Source: Shigella phage SHSML-52-1. From it: a stretch of DNA of 64,000 nucleotides. The position numbers and the translations under genes were made by a program. The notes below the pieces were generated by a model, which made no database searches, had not been told where the DNA came from, and was given only the letters and a program-made list of their open reading frames with translations. The DNA is taken from sequence record KX130865; one strand, written 5' to 3'. Shown one piece after another: positions 2,704 to 26,567 of the stretch. Every line of letters starts with the position of its first letter. The stretch's first letter is position 1.

Positions 2704-5415
2704 ATGAAAGAATTTTACTTAACGGTTGAACAGATTGGTGATTCAATTTTTGAACGTTACATCGATTCTAATGGCCGTGAACGTACTCGAGAAGTAGAAT
2801 ATAAACCATCACTGTTTGCTCATTGTCCAGAAAGTCAGGCTACGAAATATTTCGATATCTACGGTAAGCCGTGTACTCGTAAGTTGTTCGCTAATATGCG
2901 TGATGCTTCCCAATGGATTAAACGTATGGAAGATATCGGACTTGAAGCACTTGGCATGGACGATTTCAAATTGGCGTATTTGTCTGACACTTATAACTAT
3001 GAAATCAAATACGACCATACAAAAATTCGTGTGGCTAACTTCGACATCGAAGTAACATCTCCGGACGGGTTCCCTGAGCCGTCACAAGCAAAACATCCGA
3101 TTGATGCTATCACCCATTATGACTCAATTGACGACAGGTTCTACGTATTTGATCTATTGAATTCTCCATATGGTAATGTAGAAGAATGGTCTATCGAAAT
3201 TGCGGCTAAGCTTCAAGAACAAGGTGGTGATGAAGTTCCATCTGAAATTATCGATAAAATCATTTATATGCCGTTCGATAACGAAAAAGAATTGTTGATG
3301 GAATATCTCAACTTCTGGCAACAGAAAACTCCTGTCATTTTGACTGGATGGAACGTTGAGTCATTTGATATTCCATATGTGTATAACCGAATCAAGAATA
3401 TTTTTGGCGAATCTACTGCGAAACGTTTATCGCCACATCGTAAAACTCGTGTTAAAGTTATCGAAAACATGTATGGTTCTCGTGAAATCATTACATTGTT
3501 CGGTATATCTGTTCTTGATTACATTGACCTTTACAAAAAATTCTCTTTTACCAATCAACCGTCGTATTCTCTGGATTACATTTCAGAATTTGAATTGAAC
3601 GTTGGTAAACTGAAATATGACGGCCCTATTTCTAAGCTTCGTGAAAGCAATCACCAACGATATATTTCTTATAACATTATCGACGTGTATCGTGTATTGC
3701 AAATTGATGCTAAACGCCAGTTCATTAACTTGAGCTTGGACATGGGTTATTATGCTAAGATACAGATTCAATCTGTGTTTAGCCCAATTAAAACATGGGA
3801 TGCTATTATTTTTAATAGCCTTAAAGAGCAGAACAAGGTGATTCCGCAAGGTCGTTCTCACCCGGTTCAACCTTATCCTGGCGCTTTTGTTAAGGAACCT
3901 ATTCCAAATCGATACAAATATGTAATGAGTTTCGACCTTACATCTCTGTATCCAAGTATTATTCGCCAAGTGAATATTAGCCCGGAAACAATAGCAGGAA
4001 CGTTTAAAGTAGCTCCACTGCATGATTATATTAACGCAATCGCTGATCGTCCTTCAGATGTGTACAGTTGCTCTCCTAACGGCATGATGTATTATAAAGA
4101 CCGTGATGGTGTAGTTCCAACTGAAATCACTAAGGTCTTTAATCAGCGTAAAGAACATAAAGGTTACATGCTTGCAGCTCAACGTAATGGTGAAATAATT
4201 AAAGAGGCATTGCATAATCCTAATCTTTCTGTTGATGAACCATTAGATGTTGATTATCGTTTCGACTTCACTGATGAGATTAAAGAAAAGATTAAAAAGT
4301 TGTCTGCTAAATCTCTTAATGAAATGTTGTTTAGAGCTCAACGTACTGAAGTTGCAGGTATGACTGCACAAATTAACCGTAAATTGCTTATCAACTCACT
4401 TTATGGTGCACTTGGAAACGTTTGGTTCCGTTATTACGATTTGCGTAATGCAACTGCAATCACAACATTTGGTCAAATGGCTTTACAGTGGATTGAACGT
4501 AAAGTTAATGAATACCTGAATGAAGTTTGTGGTACAGAAGGCGAAGCTTTCGTTCTTTATGGTGATACAGACTCTATTTACGTATCTGCTGATAAAATTA
4601 TCGATAAGGTTGGTGAATCTAAATTCCGTGATACCAACCATTGGGTAGACTTCTTAGATAAGTTCGCTCGTGAACGTATGGAACCTGCTATTGATAGAGG
4701 TTTCCGTGAAATGTGTGAATACATGAACAATAAACAACACTTAATGTTCATGGACCGAGAAGCTATCGCTGGTCCTCCGCTCGGTTCTAAAGGTATTGGT
4801 GGATTCTGGACTGGTAAGAAACGTTATGCATTAAACGTGTGGGATATGGAAGGTACTCGTTACGCTGAGCCTAAACTCAAAATCATGGGTCTCGAAACAC
4901 AGAAATCTTCGACCCCTAAAGCAGTACAGAAAGCTCTTAAAGAATGTATTCGTCGTATGCTTCAAGAAGGTGAAGAATCATTACAAGAATATTTTAAAGA
5001 GTTTGAAAAAGAATTCCGTCAATTGAATTATATTAGCATCGCGTCGGTATCTTCTGCGAATAACATTGCTAAATATGACGTTGGTGGATTCCCTGGTCCT
5101 AAATGTCCGTTCCATATTCGTGGAATTCTGACGTATAACCGGGCTATCAAAGGTAATATTGATGCTCCACAAGTTGTAGAAGGTGAAAAAGTATATGTTC
5201 TGCCTTTACGTGAAGGAAACCCATTCGGTGATAAATGTATCGCATGGCCTTCTGGCACTGAAATCACAGATTTAATTAAAGACGACGTACTTCATTGGAT
5301 GGACTACACTGTTCTCCTTGAGAAGACATTTATTAAACCACTTGAAGGATTCACATCAGCAGCGAAACTCGATTACGAGAAGAAAGCATCTCTGTTCGAT
5401 ATGTTCGATTTTTGA
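2704..5415 (+). CDS. 43: family B DNA polymerase gp43
   Basis: 903 aa; exonuclease motifs (FDIEV, YNIIDV), polymerase motifs (SLYPSII, YGDTDS); N-terminus matches the RB69-type polymerase as recalled. Confidence 0.97.
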   Translation: MKEFYLTVEQIGDSIFERYIDSNGRERTREVEYKPSLFAHCPESQATKYFDIYGKPCTRKLFANMRDASQWIKRMEDIGLEALGMDDFKLAYLSDTYNYEIKYDHTKIRVANFDIEVTSPDGFPEPSQAKHPIDAITHYDSIDDRFYVFDLLNSPYGNVEEWSIEIAAKLQEQGGDEVPSEIIDKIIYMPFDNEKELLMEYLNFWQQKTPVILTGWNVESFDIPYVYNRIKNIFGESTAKRLSPHRKTRVKVIENMYGSREIITLFGISVLDYIDLYKKFSFTNQPSYSLDYISEFELNVGKLKYDGPISKLRESNHQRYISYNIIDVYRVLQIDAKRQFINLSLDMGYYAKIQIQSVFSPIKTWDAIIFNSLKEQNKVIPQGRSHPVQPYPGAFVKEPIPNRYKYVMSFDLTSLYPSIIRQVNISPETIAGTFKVAPLHDYINAIADRPSDVYSCSPNGMMYYKDRDGVVPTEITKVFNQRKEHKGYMLAAQRNGEIIKEALHNPNLSVDEPLDVDYRFDFTDEIKEKIKKLSAKSLNEMLFRAQRTEVAGMTAQINRKLLINSLYGALGNVWFRYYDLRNATAITTFGQMALQWIERKVNEYLNEVCGTEGEAFVLYGDTDSIYVSADKIIDKVGESKFRDTNHWVDFLDKFARERMEPAIDRGFREMCEYMNNKQHLMFMDREAIAGPPLGSKGIGGFWTGKKRYALNVWDMEGTRYAEPKLKIMGLETQKSSTPKAVQKALKECIRRMLQEGEESLQEYFKEFEKEFRQLNYISIASVSSANNIAKYDVGGFPGPKCPFHIRGILTYNRAIKGNIDAPQVVEGEKVYVLPLREGNPFGDKCIAWPSGTEITDLIKDDVLHWMDYTVLLEKTFIKPLEGFTSAAKLDYEKKASLFDMFDF

Positions 5416-21755: not shown

Positions 21756-21934
21756 TGAACAGAATAGTTAAATGGTTTAAAAGCTGGGACGATGGTGTCG
21801 GTCCAGAAGATTGGCTGGATGTTCTTGAAGAGAATATGGCTAAAGAATTCCAGAAACATGAAGAAAAGCTCGTCGAAGATGAAGGCGAACGTATTGTAAA
21901 ACTTTATATGGGTGAACCATCGAGGAAATTATAA
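21755..21934 (+). CDS. hypothetical acidic protein (59 aa)
   Basis: TAATG-coupled to both neighbours; not in track (below 60 aa). Confidence 0.3.
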   Translation: MNRIVKWFKSWDDGVGPEDWLDVLEENMAKEFQKHEEKLVEDEGERIVKLYMGEPSRKL

Positions 21935-22398
21935 TGGATGCTATGTTATTTAAAATGTATTTGCTTGAAGCCAAGTCGTTTAAACATATACCAGTAGAAG
22001 ATAAGACTCCACTAGAAATAGCTATTCTCATTAACAAAAGTCTAAATAATCCGCAATATATCGTAGAAGAATTCTGCAAATTGCAGATTCCTAAAGGTTA
22101 CAAAATTCGTGTAGAGCGAGTTGGAGCTATTACTCGTTCTAAAAATTCTCCGTTTAGTCTTGAAGAAGGCATAAAGGACTTAGGTTATGAATCCACGGAA
22201 AATGCTGTTTATGTGAATCCTGAAAGGCGTTTAGACCTGTTTGAAAAGCGGGACCATAAGTATTTTGCCAAAAAATACTTTATTACATCATTAGCAGATT
22301 TAGTCCATTTGCAACGAGCTATTTGGAAATTTTTTAAGACAAAAGGTGTAGCGCTAGAAACATTCTCCGAGCAGCCTAGTTTTTATTTAGGTGAATAA
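21934..22398 (+). CDS. hypothetical protein (154 aa)
   Basis: Track ORF; no family recognised. Confidence 0.5.
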   Translation: MDAMLFKMYLLEAKSFKHIPVEDKTPLEIAILINKSLNNPQYIVEEFCKLQIPKGYKIRVERVGAITRSKNSPFSLEEGIKDLGYESTENAVYVNPERRLDLFEKRDHKYFAKKYFITSLADLVHLQRAIWKFFKTKGVALETFSEQPSFYLGE

Positions 22399-22579
22399 TA
22401 TGGACCTTATGAGTATGTTTGACGAGCCTGAAGTTGAGGCTCCTAAAGTGCATCGTAGTGAACTTGTTGATGAACTAGATAGTATTATACAACGACACGG
22501 CTTTAGTTTACCTGTCGAAGCCCTGAAAGACCTTGCCTCTTATTATGACGACCCTCCACCATGGAGTCCTTGGAAATGA
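22391..22579 (+). CDS. hypothetical acidic protein (62 aa)
   Basis: Track ORF overlapping the upstream stop. Confidence 0.4.
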   Translation: MNNMDLMSMFDEPEVEAPKVHRSELVDELDSIIQRHGFSLPVEALKDLASYYDDPPPWSPWK

Positions 22580-22739
22580 AAGAGAAATTTAAAGAGAAAT
22601 TCTTACTAGAAATCAAGGAAAAAGACTTTGAGACATGGTATCGAATGGTGAAAGGGTTGACATTGCTTTTTAAAGCATCGTTATTCATGTTAGAACAACC
22701 TGGCCCAGATGGTCCTTTAGTAGGAAAGCTTAAAAAGTA

Positions 22740-22768
22740 GTTTACATTCCCTCCTCTCGTGTTATGAT
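22740..22768 (+). promoter_or_regulatory. early promoter (-35 GTTTAC 22740-22745, -10 TATGAT 22763-22768)
   Basis: 17-bp spacer; 28 nt upstream of the 22796 ATG. Confidence 0.45.
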
Positions 22769-22795
22769 AGGCTTATCTTTAAATGGAGGTCTATC

Positions 22796-23377
22796 ATGAC
22801 ATGTCAATCTGAACTTCAAGAACGCGAATACCTAACAAATCTTATTGATAGCAAATTCACCCGCCAAGAACAAAACATTCTCTGGGCTTGCACCGATTCT
22901 AAGGAAGACCCGGATTTCCACTATGAATTAGACCATCTTGTTCGTAAGCATATGACTTCTACAGTACCAGTAGAACTCTACCGTGGTGTAACTCCAGAAG
23001 AAGTAGAACATCTTTCATTGTTATCTGTAGGATGCCATTGGTCTCCTGGACGAGTAACATCGTTCACAACTGATTTCAGTACGGCTCGTCAATTCTCTGG
23101 GAGATGGGAATATCAGACGTACACTATTCTTAGTCTCAGGAATGCTCCATTCATTTTTGATTACTACCAAAACATGGTTAACATTGTACTTGCCGGAAAG
23201 AATCCTAAGCATGTTATGGAAGAAACGCGTGTTGACGTCCTAGATATGATTGAATCTGAACAAGAATACATGGTCTCAGGTATCTCTAGATTTGAGATTG
23301 TGGAAATTGAAGACTTAGAATATGACCCTTTATCTCGACTATACAAAATCATTCATTTAAAAATGTTGAATTTTTAG
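22796..23377 (+). CDS. ADP-ribosyltransferase, ModA/ModB-like (paralog 1)
   Basis: 193 aa; R-S-E arrangement (LYRGV, SFTTDFS, EQEYM) typical of arginine-specific mono-ARTs; paralogous to the next gene. Confidence 0.55.
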   Translation: MTCQSELQEREYLTNLIDSKFTRQEQNILWACTDSKEDPDFHYELDHLVRKHMTSTVPVELYRGVTPEEVEHLSLLSVGCHWSPGRVTSFTTDFSTARQFSGRWEYQTYTILSLRNAPFIFDYYQNMVNIVLAGKNPKHVMEETRVDVLDMIESEQEYMVSGISRFEIVEIEDLEYDPLSRLYKIIHLKMLNF

Positions 23378-23406
23378 TGTACAAACTCTACCGACGATGA
23401 TACTAT
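23377..23406 (+). promoter_or_regulatory. early promoter (-35 GTGTAC 23377-23382, -10 TACTAT 23401-23406)
   Basis: 18-bp spacer; upstream of the second ART paralog. Confidence 0.4.
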
Positions 23407-23434
23407 ACCTTTATCAACCACAGGAGAAACCTAA

Positions 23435-24043
23435 ATGTTTATGCCGTATAATGAATGTGAAATTGAGGAAATGGTTCGCCGTGCTCAATGCCCCGAATAT
23501 CAAGATGAATTGCAGTACGAAATTGATAGTCAATTCAACGATAATGAACAAAGCATCCTTTGGCAGTGTATGGAAAACAAGCCAGACTGTATTCAACAGG
23601 AGTTAAGTTCAATCGTTCGTAGAAATTGGACGTCTTCAGTTCCTGAGACAATGTATCGTGGAATCTCTAAGAAAACTATGGCCACACTCGATGATAAAAG
23701 CATTGGTAGTATTATTAAATTTGACAGAGTAATGAGCTTTAGTCCAGTGTTCGGTGTAGCACGTAACTTTGCTTCGTATAATTTTTACGGAACATTTAAT
23801 ATGTTCTGCATCAAAGATGCACCATTTGCTTTCAACTTCCGTGAACATATGCTTAACATGATTCTGGCTGCGCCATCTTGTGAGTTCAATGGAGCTTTCC
23901 CTGAAGCGACAAGACGGTCTAATGCTAGACTTATATCTGACGAATGCGAATTTATGCTCCCTATAGGGACTACACTACGTGTAGATTCTATTATTCAAGA
24001 TGGACGTTATACAATCTGGAATCTGTCTATTGTCAGTTACTGA
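23435..24043 (+). CDS. ADP-ribosyltransferase, ModA/ModB-like (paralog 2)
   Basis: 202 aa; shares N-terminal block (E.QSILW.C…VRRNWTSSVPETMYRGI) with paralog 1; SFSPVFG and ECEFM motifs. Confidence 0.55.
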   Translation: MFMPYNECEIEEMVRRAQCPEYQDELQYEIDSQFNDNEQSILWQCMENKPDCIQQELSSIVRRNWTSSVPETMYRGISKKTMATLDDKSIGSIIKFDRVMSFSPVFGVARNFASYNFYGTFNMFCIKDAPFAFNFREHMLNMILAAPSCEFNGAFPEATRRSNARLISDECEFMLPIGTTLRVDSIIQDGRYTIWNLSIVSY

Positions 24044-24117: not shown

Positions 24118-24158
24118 GTGTACACTACCTGAGGGCATGATATTATAGACCTATCAGC
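24118..24158 (+). promoter_or_regulatory. PeSL-type early promoter (-35 GTGTAC 24118-24123, -10 TATTAT 24141-24146, core TATAGACCTATCAGC)
   Basis: 17-bp spacer; conserved cassette core. Confidence 0.5.
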
Positions 24159-24196: not shown

Positions 24197-24943
24197 ATGT
24201 TATCAAATAATAAAATTAACAAAATCAATCGTCGTCTTGACCACACCAGAGCTTCTGCGAAGAGACGCTCTAAGGATTTTAACTTAGACTTTAATTACCT
24301 TAAAAACATTCTTGATCAAAAGGTCTGCGCTTACTCAGGTGAATCTTTCAATAACTCTGTTGAAGGTGAGAAATTATCCTTAGAACGTTTTAATAACGAT
24401 ATCGGCTACATTAAAGGTAATGTTATCCCAGTTAAGAAAAAATATAACACGGCTCGTTCTGATTTAACATTAGAAGAACTTATTGAGAAACGTGATGCCA
24501 TTGCAAGACGTATCGCTAATCCTTCTGTCCGTAAAGTAGAGAAACTTAATCTCGACGAGAAGAAATGGGCCCAAATTAAAAAGGTTTATGGTACTATTTT
24601 AAAAATCCGAGCAAAACGTGAAAATCGTGTTAAGCATATGGCTAACATGATGAAAAATCAACCTTTATCTAACGAATCTAAACTTAGAATTGTTGCTTTG
24701 AAAGCACGCATTAATGGCTCACATCAAGCAGAAGGCCATGAACTTACTAAACTCAACGTTCTTCTTAAAGGCTCTGACTGGAAAACTAAAACTAAATTAA
24801 CTGATGCTGAATCGCTTTTCGATACATATGATAAAGTTATCCAAGGTCTGCGACGTTTTGAAAAGATTGGTTTCATTGGTAAATTAAAATTGAAACGTGG
24901 CTTACCACTTAGCGCATCATTATTCCAACTGATTAAAGGTTAA
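24197..24943 (+). CDS. basic protein at the srd position (Srd-like, tentative)
   Basis: 248 aa, Lys/Arg-rich; assignment by size and synteny (modA/modB - srd - dda) only. Confidence 0.4.
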   Translation: MLSNNKINKINRRLDHTRASAKRRSKDFNLDFNYLKNILDQKVCAYSGESFNNSVEGEKLSLERFNNDIGYIKGNVIPVKKKYNTARSDLTLEELIEKRDAIARRIANPSVRKVEKLNLDEKKWAQIKKVYGTILKIRAKRENRVKHMANMMKNQPLSNESKLRIVALKARINGSHQAEGHELTKLNVLLKGSDWKTKTKLTDAESLFDTYDKVIQGLRRFEKIGFIGKLKLKRGLPLSASLFQLIKG

Positions 24944-24945
24944 TT

Positions 24946-25257
24946 ATGGTTTATGTATATGCAATAGTTTATCGAGATATGGAAGGATTTACTGTCCCGG
25001 TTCCACTTGATGAGCATCGTCCTGCAGTATTTTTTAGAAAGGATATTGCAGATAAAGTTTTCGATACTTTGAAAACACAGTATAAAACAGATTTAAAAAT
25101 GGGAGTTCTAAGAATGGTCGAAACTCCGCGTAAGTTCTGGTTTAATAAGCTTGAAATGAAACACATTAAACTAGATGCGGAGACGCAAAGATTGTATCAA
25201 CGAATTCTAGATACTGGCCGTATTGTTAGTATTCCAATTGCAGGGACTTTACGATGA
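24946..25257 (+). CDS. hypothetical protein (103 aa)
   Basis: Track ORF, tightly packed between the srd-like gene and dda. Confidence 0.5.
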   Translation: MVYVYAIVYRDMEGFTVPVPLDEHRPAVFFRKDIADKVFDTLKTQYKTDLKMGVLRMVETPRKFWFNKLEMKHIKLDAETQRLYQRILDTGRIVSIPIAGTLR

Positions 25258-26567
25258 CATTTGATGATTTGACTGAAGGCCAGAAAAACGCCTTCAACGT
25301 TGTTATGAAAGCTATTAAAGAAAAGAAACATCACGTAACTATTAACGGGCCTGCTGGTACAGGTAAAACAACCCTTACTAGATTCATCGTTGAAGCTCTT
25401 ATTTCTGCCGGAGAATCAGGTATTATTTTAGCAGCCCCTACACATGCTGCTAAAAAGGTTCTAAGCAAACTTGCCGGTCAAGAAGCATCGACTATTCATA
25501 GCATTCTTAAAATCAACCCAACTACATACGAAGAAAACGTATTGTTTGAACAGAAAAAGGTTCCCGACTTAGCCTTGTGTCGTGTACTGTTATTTGATGA
25601 AGCGTCAATGTGCGACCGTTCTCTGTTTAAAATAATGTTAGCTAGTATCCCTAAATGGTGCACAGTAATTGGAATTGGTGACCGATGCCAGATTCGACCG
25701 GTAGACCCAGGCGAATCAACTGCGTATCTAAGTCCTTTCTTCACTCACAAAGACTTCGTGCAATGCGACCTTACAGAAGTTAAACGTAGCAATGCGCCAA
25801 TTATTGATGTTGCGACTGATATTCGTAATGGCAAATGGATTTATGATAAAGTAGTTGATGGGCATGGTGTTCATGGATATACAGACCTTAAATCGTATAT
25901 GATGAATTATTTTAATGTCGTTAAAACTCCTGAAGACCTTTTCGAAAATCGAATGATGGCATTCACAAATAAGTCGGTGGACAAGTTGAATTCAATTATT
26001 CGCCGAAAACTTTTTGAAACAGAAAAGCCATTTATTAAAGACGAAGTCATTGTTCTACAAGAGCCACTTACTAAGACATATAAGCTAGATGGCAAAAATA
26101 TGACCGAAATGCTTTTCAATAACGGGCAATTCGTTCGTATTCGAGACGCTGTAGAAACGTCTACATTCGTTAAAGCACGCGGTGTTTCAGGCGAATATAT
26201 GATACGATACTGGAATCTTACAGTAGAAACATATGGGGATGATGAAGAATACATCCGCGAAGATATAAAGGTTATTTCTTCCGAAGAAGAGCTTTATAAA
26301 TTCAATTTGTTTTTGGCTAAGACCGCAGAAACATACAAATTTTGGAATAAAGGTGGTAAAGCTCCATGGAGCGAATTCTGGGATGCTAAACGTATGTTCA
26401 CTAAGGTGAAGGCACTACCAGTATCAACCTTCCATAAGGCCCAGGGTATGTCTGTTGACACGGCCTTTGTTTATACACCGTGTATCCATTATGCCGATTC
26501 AGAATTAGCTAAACAGTTATTATATGTCGGCACAACTCGTGGTCGTTTTGACGTCCATTTTATTTGA
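25254..26567 (+). CDS. dda: Dda DNA helicase (SF1)
   Basis: 437 aa; N-terminus MTFDDLTEGQKNAFN…GPAGTGKTT matches recalled T4 Dda. Confidence 0.95.
   Translation: MTFDDLTEGQKNAFNVVMKAIKEKKHHVTINGPAGTGKTTLTRFIVEALISAGESGIILAAPTHAAKKVLSKLAGQEASTIHSILKINPTTYEENVLFEQKKVPDLALCRVLLFDEASMCDRSLFKIMLASIPKWCTVIGIGDRCQIRPVDPGESTAYLSPFFTHKDFVQCDLTEVKRSNAPIIDVATDIRNGKWIYDKVVDGHGVHGYTDLKSYMMNYFNVVKTPEDLFENRMMAFTNKSVDKLNSIIRRKLFETEKPFIKDEVIVLQEPLTKTYKLDGKNMTEMLFNNGQFVRIRDAVETSTFVKARGVSGEYMIRYWNLTVETYGDDEEYIREDIKVISSEEELYKFNLFLAKTAETYKFWNKGGKAPWSEFWDAKRMFTKVKALPVSTFHKAQGMSVDTAFVYTPCIHYADSELAKQLLYVGTTRGRFDVHFI

Follow-up and report, generated by a model that had tools for sequence, protein, structure and literature searches.

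The gene pair and its surroundings

The DNA analyzed here, referred to below as the window, is a 64,000-nt stretch of Shigella phage SHSML-52-1, and two of its open reading frames, ORF1 and ORF2, are predicted to encode ADP-ribosyltransferases (ARTs) of the Mod family. The preliminary description had placed two adjacent genes of 193 and 202 aa at this site, and their coordinates and sizes proved exact; both are on the + strand, arranged head to tail, among the following genes:

21934-22398, + strand: Mrh-family protein
22391-22579, + strand: T4 ModA.2-like protein
22561-22740, + strand: 59-aa protein, PHROG 5790
22796..23377, + strand: ORF1, 193 aa, in the modB position, predicted Mod-family arginine ADP-ribosyltransferase
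23435..24043, + strand: ORF2, 202 aa, in the modA position, predicted Mod-family arginine ADP-ribosyltransferase
24197-24943, + strand: Srd
24946-25257, + strand: Dda.1-family protein
25254-26567, + strand: Dda helicase

BLASTP aligns the two products over ~147 residues at 35% identity (E 2e-28), which identifies them as paralogs. An N-terminal block shared by the pair had been reported earlier; the paralogy behind that observation stands, whereas its restriction to the N-terminus does not, as the likeness covers nearly the whole catalytic domain.

The start of ORF2 can be read in two ways. A second in-frame ATG at 23441 (M3, two codons downstream of M1) would yield a protein of 200 aa; this is where the annotation of phage Mizar starts the counterpart of ORF2, also at 200 aa, and where the alignments of ORF2 with both T4 ModA and T4 ModB begin. 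The spacing of the Shine-Dalgarno sequence GGAG at 23423-23426, on the other hand, favors the first ATG (23435) over that at 23441.

Several other signals in the vicinity were considered and set aside. Minus-strand ORFs of 60-70 aa overlap the genes; these were rejected, as the promoter motifs and the conserved genes all lie on the + strand. Two terminator-like hairpins within ORF2, at 23807-23821 and 23970-23984, have 6-bp stems and fall in a conserved coding region, and they were judged to be chance occurrences. A search of Rfam at gathering thresholds returned no family anywhere in the whole 64,000-nt window.

Downstream of the pair, the Srd protein matches the Srd anti-sigma factor family with an E value of 6e-99, and its N-terminal ~100-150 residues also match PHROGs for endonuclease, HNH endonuclease and endonuclease VII (E 4e-18 to 1e-10). 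These profile matches suggest an HNH-like domain within Srd or in its ancestry.

Candidate promoters and ribosome binding sites

Each of the two genes is preceded by a T4-type early-promoter motif and by a Shine-Dalgarno sequence, and a further motif precedes srd:

22740..22768, + strand: T4-type early-promoter motif before ORF1 (motif match), GTTTAC, 17-nt gap to the -10 hexamer, TGT-TATGAT (extended -10)
22785..22789, + strand: Shine-Dalgarno sequence GGAGG of ORF1, 6 nt from the ATG, marked in the Mizar annotation as a ribosome binding site
23377..23406, + strand: T4-type early-promoter motif before ORF2 (motif match), GTGTAC, 18-nt gap to the -10 hexamer, TGA-TACTAT
23423..23426, + strand: Shine-Dalgarno sequence GGAG of ORF2, 8 nt from the ATG at 23435, read from the sequence
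24118-24146, + strand: early-promoter motif before srd (pattern match)

The hexamer GTTTAC is the -35 consensus of T4 early promoters (PMC1524935), and the motif upstream of ORF2 begins at the final base of the ORF1 stop codon. Both strands of the window were scanned with the pattern GT[GT]TAC-N13-15-TGnTAnnnT, and the counts were compared with those in shuffled sequences: 16 matches were found on the + strand, between 15096 and 58405, and none on the - strand, against an expectation of 0.44 from the shuffles. The motif upstream of ORF1 is kept in Mizar and in phiE142 (locus L017), and that upstream of ORF2 in the same two phages as well as in loci L003 and L019. At the level of motifs, then, the earlier proposal of a separate promoter for each gene holds good, and the sites at 22740-22768 and 23377-23406 are regarded as candidate promoters.

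A generic sigma-70 scan had yielded matches no more numerous than in shuffles and had picked out the ORF1 motif only, and it was replaced by the T4 early-promoter pattern. Given the strand-exclusive distribution of the motifs, the entire window looks like a single rightward early-transcribed region.

Family membership and catalytic residues

Both proteins match PHROG 832, annotated as "RNA polymerase ADP-ribosylase", with E values of 5.8e-38 for ORF1 and 1.3e-38 for ORF2. In BLASTP comparisons with the T4 enzymes, ORF1 is 38% identical to ModB (91 bits, E 8e-28) and 26% identical to ModA (42 bits, E 8e-10), and ORF2 aligns over its full length with both, at 30% identity to ModB (105 bits, E 4e-33) and likewise 30% to ModA (71 bits, E 5e-20). 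Of the general domain collections, Pfam-A had no match to ORF1 and, for ORF2, nothing beyond a sub-threshold match to DUF6597, and NCBIfam matched neither protein; database homologs bear precomputed labels for PF26816.

The preliminary description had also recognized in each protein the R-S-E arrangement of arginine-specific mono-ADP-ribosyltransferases, and this arrangement can be assigned residue by residue. ORF1 carries it as Y62-R63-G64, S89-F90-T91 and E155-Q-E157, and ORF2 as Y74-R75-G76, S101-F102-S103 and E170-C-E172, encoded by the following codons:

22982-22984, + strand: ORF1 R63
23060-23062, + strand: ORF1 S89
23258-23260, + strand: ORF1 E155
23264-23266, + strand: ORF1 E157
23657-23659, + strand: ORF2 R75
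23735-23737, + strand: ORF2 S101
23942-23944, + strand: ORF2 E170
23948-23950, + strand: ORF2 E172

Alignment with T4 ModA and ModB places a catalytic arginine and catalytic glutamates in both ORFs. In the four-way alignment, R63, G64, S89, E155 and E157 of ORF1 share columns with R75, G76, S101, E170 and E172 of ORF2, with R73, G74, S99, E171 and E173 of T4 ModB, and with R72, G73, S96, E163 and E165 of T4 ModA. None of these five positions varies among 24 closer homologs, and each is kept in 38-39 of 39 representatives drawn from across the family. Mutational analyses of the T4 enzymes speak directly to their function: the double substitution R73A,G74A inactivates the ModB enzyme and impairs the burst size of T4 (PMC10468400), and E165A abolishes ADP-ribosylation by ModA (PMC11404850). 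Because the conserved residues of ORF1 and ORF2 align with the positions of these inactivating mutations, they correspond to experimentally validated residues.

The Mod family is a small one, carried mostly by phages: of 1.84 billion cluster representatives searched with a profile, 121 matched at E <= 1e-3, 43 of these at E <= 1e-10. The same profile also matches inside giant proteins of ~1000-4300 aa (P0061, P0069, P0070, P0074 and others), which probably belong to the polymorphic toxins or polyvalent proteins and contain a related ART domain.

Predicted fold

AlphaFold models of both proteins are confident (pLDDT 94.1 for ORF2 and 89.5 for ORF1), and they support a predicted fold consisting of the ADP-ribosyltransferase split beta-sandwich together with an N-terminal helical region. 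The best PDB structural matches of the two predicted models are all ADP-ribosyltransferases of the R-S-E clade. Relatedness to the bacterial ART toxins of this clade (C3, VIP2, iota Ia/CDTa, Certhrax, Vis, Tre1, HopU1 and SpvB) is distant, with only 10-20% sequence identity, and the biological settings differ as well: the toxins are secreted or injected effectors, whereas ORF1 and ORF2 would be early proteins of a phage. A sequence search of the PDB found no experimental structure of a Mod protein and no match to any chain above chance level; hits to nucleophosmin, trigger factor and SPT7 (E 0.017 to about 1) were rejected as noise.

Gene order and comparison with T4

The order of genes around the pair matches that of T4, where mrh is followed, further along, by modA.2, modB, modA, srd, dda.1 and dda. 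As this order is shared, ORF1 is the positional modB and ORF2 the positional modA. T4 ModB (NP_049636, 207 aa), described as an NAD-protein ADP-ribosyltransferase and RNAylating enzyme, also belongs to PHROG 832, and its gene, like ORF1, follows modA.2 and has an early-promoter motif upstream. The proteins differ in detail: ORF1 is 14 aa shorter, its N-terminal helix is shorter, and it is without an insertion of ~8 residues that T4 ModB carries before the ExE region. T4 ModA (NP_049635, 200 aa), which ADP-ribosylates Arg265 of the RNA polymerase alpha subunit, is encoded directly upstream of srd, as is ORF2. With family, catalytic residues, predicted fold and T4-like gene order all in agreement, the identification of the pair as ModA/ModB-like is upheld.

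The two phages also differ slightly in how the genes of the pair are joined. In T4, modB and modA overlap by ATGA (positions 3508-3511 of the T4 locus, L002), in which the start codon of modA runs into the modB stop codon, and early-promoter motifs stand before modB and srd, with none before modA. In the present window, ORF1 and ORF2 are instead separated by a 57-nt spacer (within window 23375-23437) carrying an early-promoter motif and a Shine-Dalgarno sequence. This arrangement, with a separate motif and Shine-Dalgarno sequence for the downstream gene, is kept in Mizar, in phiE142 (L017), and in loci L003 and L019.

Among other T4-like loci (L004-L010), several show a single Mod homolog within the fetched region of ~6.5 kb, and the proteins of L008-L010 are longer, at 233-240 aa. 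The tandem pair is therefore found in only part of the family.

Correspondence of the two proteins with ModA and ModB

Sequence scores and position do not point the same way for both proteins. The best T4 match of ORF1 is ModB (91 vs 42 bits for ModA), in accord with its position. For T4 ModA, the better match in the window is ORF2 (71 vs 42 bits for ORF1), and yet ORF2 itself scores higher against ModB than against ModA (105 vs 71 bits). In a neighbor-joining (NJ) tree built from the Mod proteins of 20 loci, the T4 ModA clade and the ORF2 clade were sisters (bootstrap 77%); in a wider tree of 39 sequences the grouping of ORF2 with ModA was recovered at 30%, with deep nodes at 2-35%. Neither tree resolved a clade of ORF1 with ModB. 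The branch bearing T4 ModA is long and includes just one further 50%-identity cluster, and this is probably why ORF2 scores higher against ModB. Assignment of ModA and ModB orthology by NJ phylogeny was dropped in view of the low bootstrap values at the deep nodes of the wide tree. Gene position supports both readings, ORF1 as modB and ORF2 as modA; for the second, phylogeny adds weak support.

These comparisons leave room for a division of labor unlike that of T4, in which both proteins are active ARTs; both might, for example, act as ModB-like, broad-spectrum enzymes on translation factors and possibly in RNAylation, leaving RNA polymerase alpha to Alt or unmodified, or their targets might be swapped or new. 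Such a division is compatible with the main reading of the pair, and we regard it as a real though minor possibility. It would accord with the preference of ORF2 for ModB in BLASTP, with the long ModA branch and its single neighboring cluster in a family whose deep branches are poorly supported, and with the promoter motif that ORF2 has to itself in place of the translational coupling of T4 modA. Against this, ORF2 sits in the modA position directly before srd, T4 ModA prefers ORF2 over ORF1, the ORF2 clade is sister to the ModA clade in both trees, and faster evolution of T4 ModA alone would give ORF2 its higher score against ModB. At 26-38% identity to the T4 enzymes, the target set of either protein is not to be inferred from sequence, be it Arg265 of RNA polymerase alpha or S1, EF-Tu, trigger factor and RNAylation. 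A more specific proposal, that the gene in the modA position of RB69-type phages does not encode a functional ModA and that these phages carry two ModB-like enzymes with distinct target spectra, possibly RNAylating, is unlikely. It would build on the closer likeness of ORF2 to T4 ModB and on the separate promoter motif of ORF2. Were it correct, the upstream copy, which phiE142 and ESh27 have lost, would be expendable, and Arg265 of RNA polymerase alpha might be modified by Alt alone or not at all.

Relatives and natural deletions of ORF1

The pair is already known. A 4.6-kb region containing it is 97.6-98.7% identical at the nucleotide level to the best-matching Escherichia and Shigella T-even phages, among them phiEC1, Mizar, FP43, moskry and the AV series, and 151 records cover at least 80% of the region; the window overall is ~98-99% identical to many deposited genomes of Mosigvirus, the genus in which moskry is classified and which makes up the RB69 group of Tevenvirinae. 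ORF2 is 100% identical to a phiEC1 protein and ORF1 99.5% identical to an AV116 protein. In RB69 (AY303349 / NC_004928) the same genes are named modB (upstream) and modA (downstream), and relative to RB69 and the other Mosigvirus phages (phiEC1, Mizar, moskry and the AV series) the present pair shows strain-level substitutions only. Names in other records include "ADP-ribosylase", "RNA polymerase ADP-ribosylase" and "ModA or ModB ribosyltransferase". From the near-identical genomes, the identity of ORF2 with the phiEC1 protein and the RB69 names, it follows that these are the annotated modB and modA of an RB69-like (Mosigvirus) T-even coliphage, genes deposited and named not only in RB69 but also in more than 100 near-identical genomes.

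Two of the relatives, phiE142 (L017 2992-3126; window 22806-23261) and Shigella phage ESh27, retain ORF1 only as a 44-aa in-frame remnant in which MTCQSE is joined directly to QEYMVSG.... Two copies of AATCTGAAC, at 22806-22814 and 23253-23261 in the window, flank the deletion, which leaves the ORF1 promoter motif and Shine-Dalgarno sequence in place. As ORF1 has been deleted in at least two natural relatives, it is dispensable in nature, at least under some conditions.

It might be asked whether one of the two has lost catalytic activity and persists as a pseudo-enzyme, or is a duplicate undergoing decay, and here the in-frame loss of ORF1 in phiE142 and ESh27, as well as an N-terminal helix shorter in ORF1 than in ORF2 and the T4 proteins, would fit. 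The suggestion is nevertheless extremely unlikely: both proteins keep all of the invariant family residues (R, G, S and ExE), both give confident models of the ART fold, and each is found at 90% identity or higher in more than 130 phage records.

A proposed role early in infection

Taken together, the family relationships and the conserved chemistry of the active site lead us to conclude, with a probability of about 0.9 for family and chemistry, that both proteins are Mod-family R-S-ExE arginine mono-ADP-ribosyltransferases, presumably active early in infection. We infer their activity, expression timing and targets from the T4 enzymes. The preliminary description had stated that in T4 these enzymes modify the alpha subunit of host RNA polymerase and translation factors, and this agrees with the literature, in which ModA acts on Arg265 of RNA polymerase alpha and ModB on S1 and translation factors (PMC2988021, PMC10468400). 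The targets reported for T4 ModB are ribosomal protein S1, EF-Tu and trigger factor, and the enzyme can also transfer NAD-capped RNA (PMC10468400).

By analogy, transcription of the two genes by host sigma-70 RNA polymerase would begin immediately upon infection, from a separate T4-type early promoter for each. Both enzymes would then bind NAD+ through the arginine of beta-1 and the S-x-[ST] motif of beta-2, and the ExE glutamates of the ARTT loop would serve to activate both C1' of the ribose and the arginine that accepts ADP-ribose. The ADP-ribose would thereby be moved onto arginines of host transcription or translation proteins, and as an outcome the host may be partly redirected to phage gene expression.

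A different main role, in counter-defense through ADP-ribosylation of nucleic acids or of the host's immunity proteins, is very unlikely. The Mod family does appear to be fast-evolving and dispensable, and phage ARTs with anti-defense roles exist, AcrIF11 reportedly being one. Both the ExE motif and the precedent of T4 suggest instead that the targets are protein arginines within the expression machinery (PMC2988021, PMC10468400), and the gene content of the locus shows no link to a defense system.

Beyond its correct annotation the pair matters little, as these are the textbook host-takeover ADP-ribosyltransferases of the T-even phages. Its value is comparative: the RB69-type enzymes are only 26-38% identical to those of T4 and still keep all of the catalytic residues, and they could help to map the determinants of target choice and of RNAylation.
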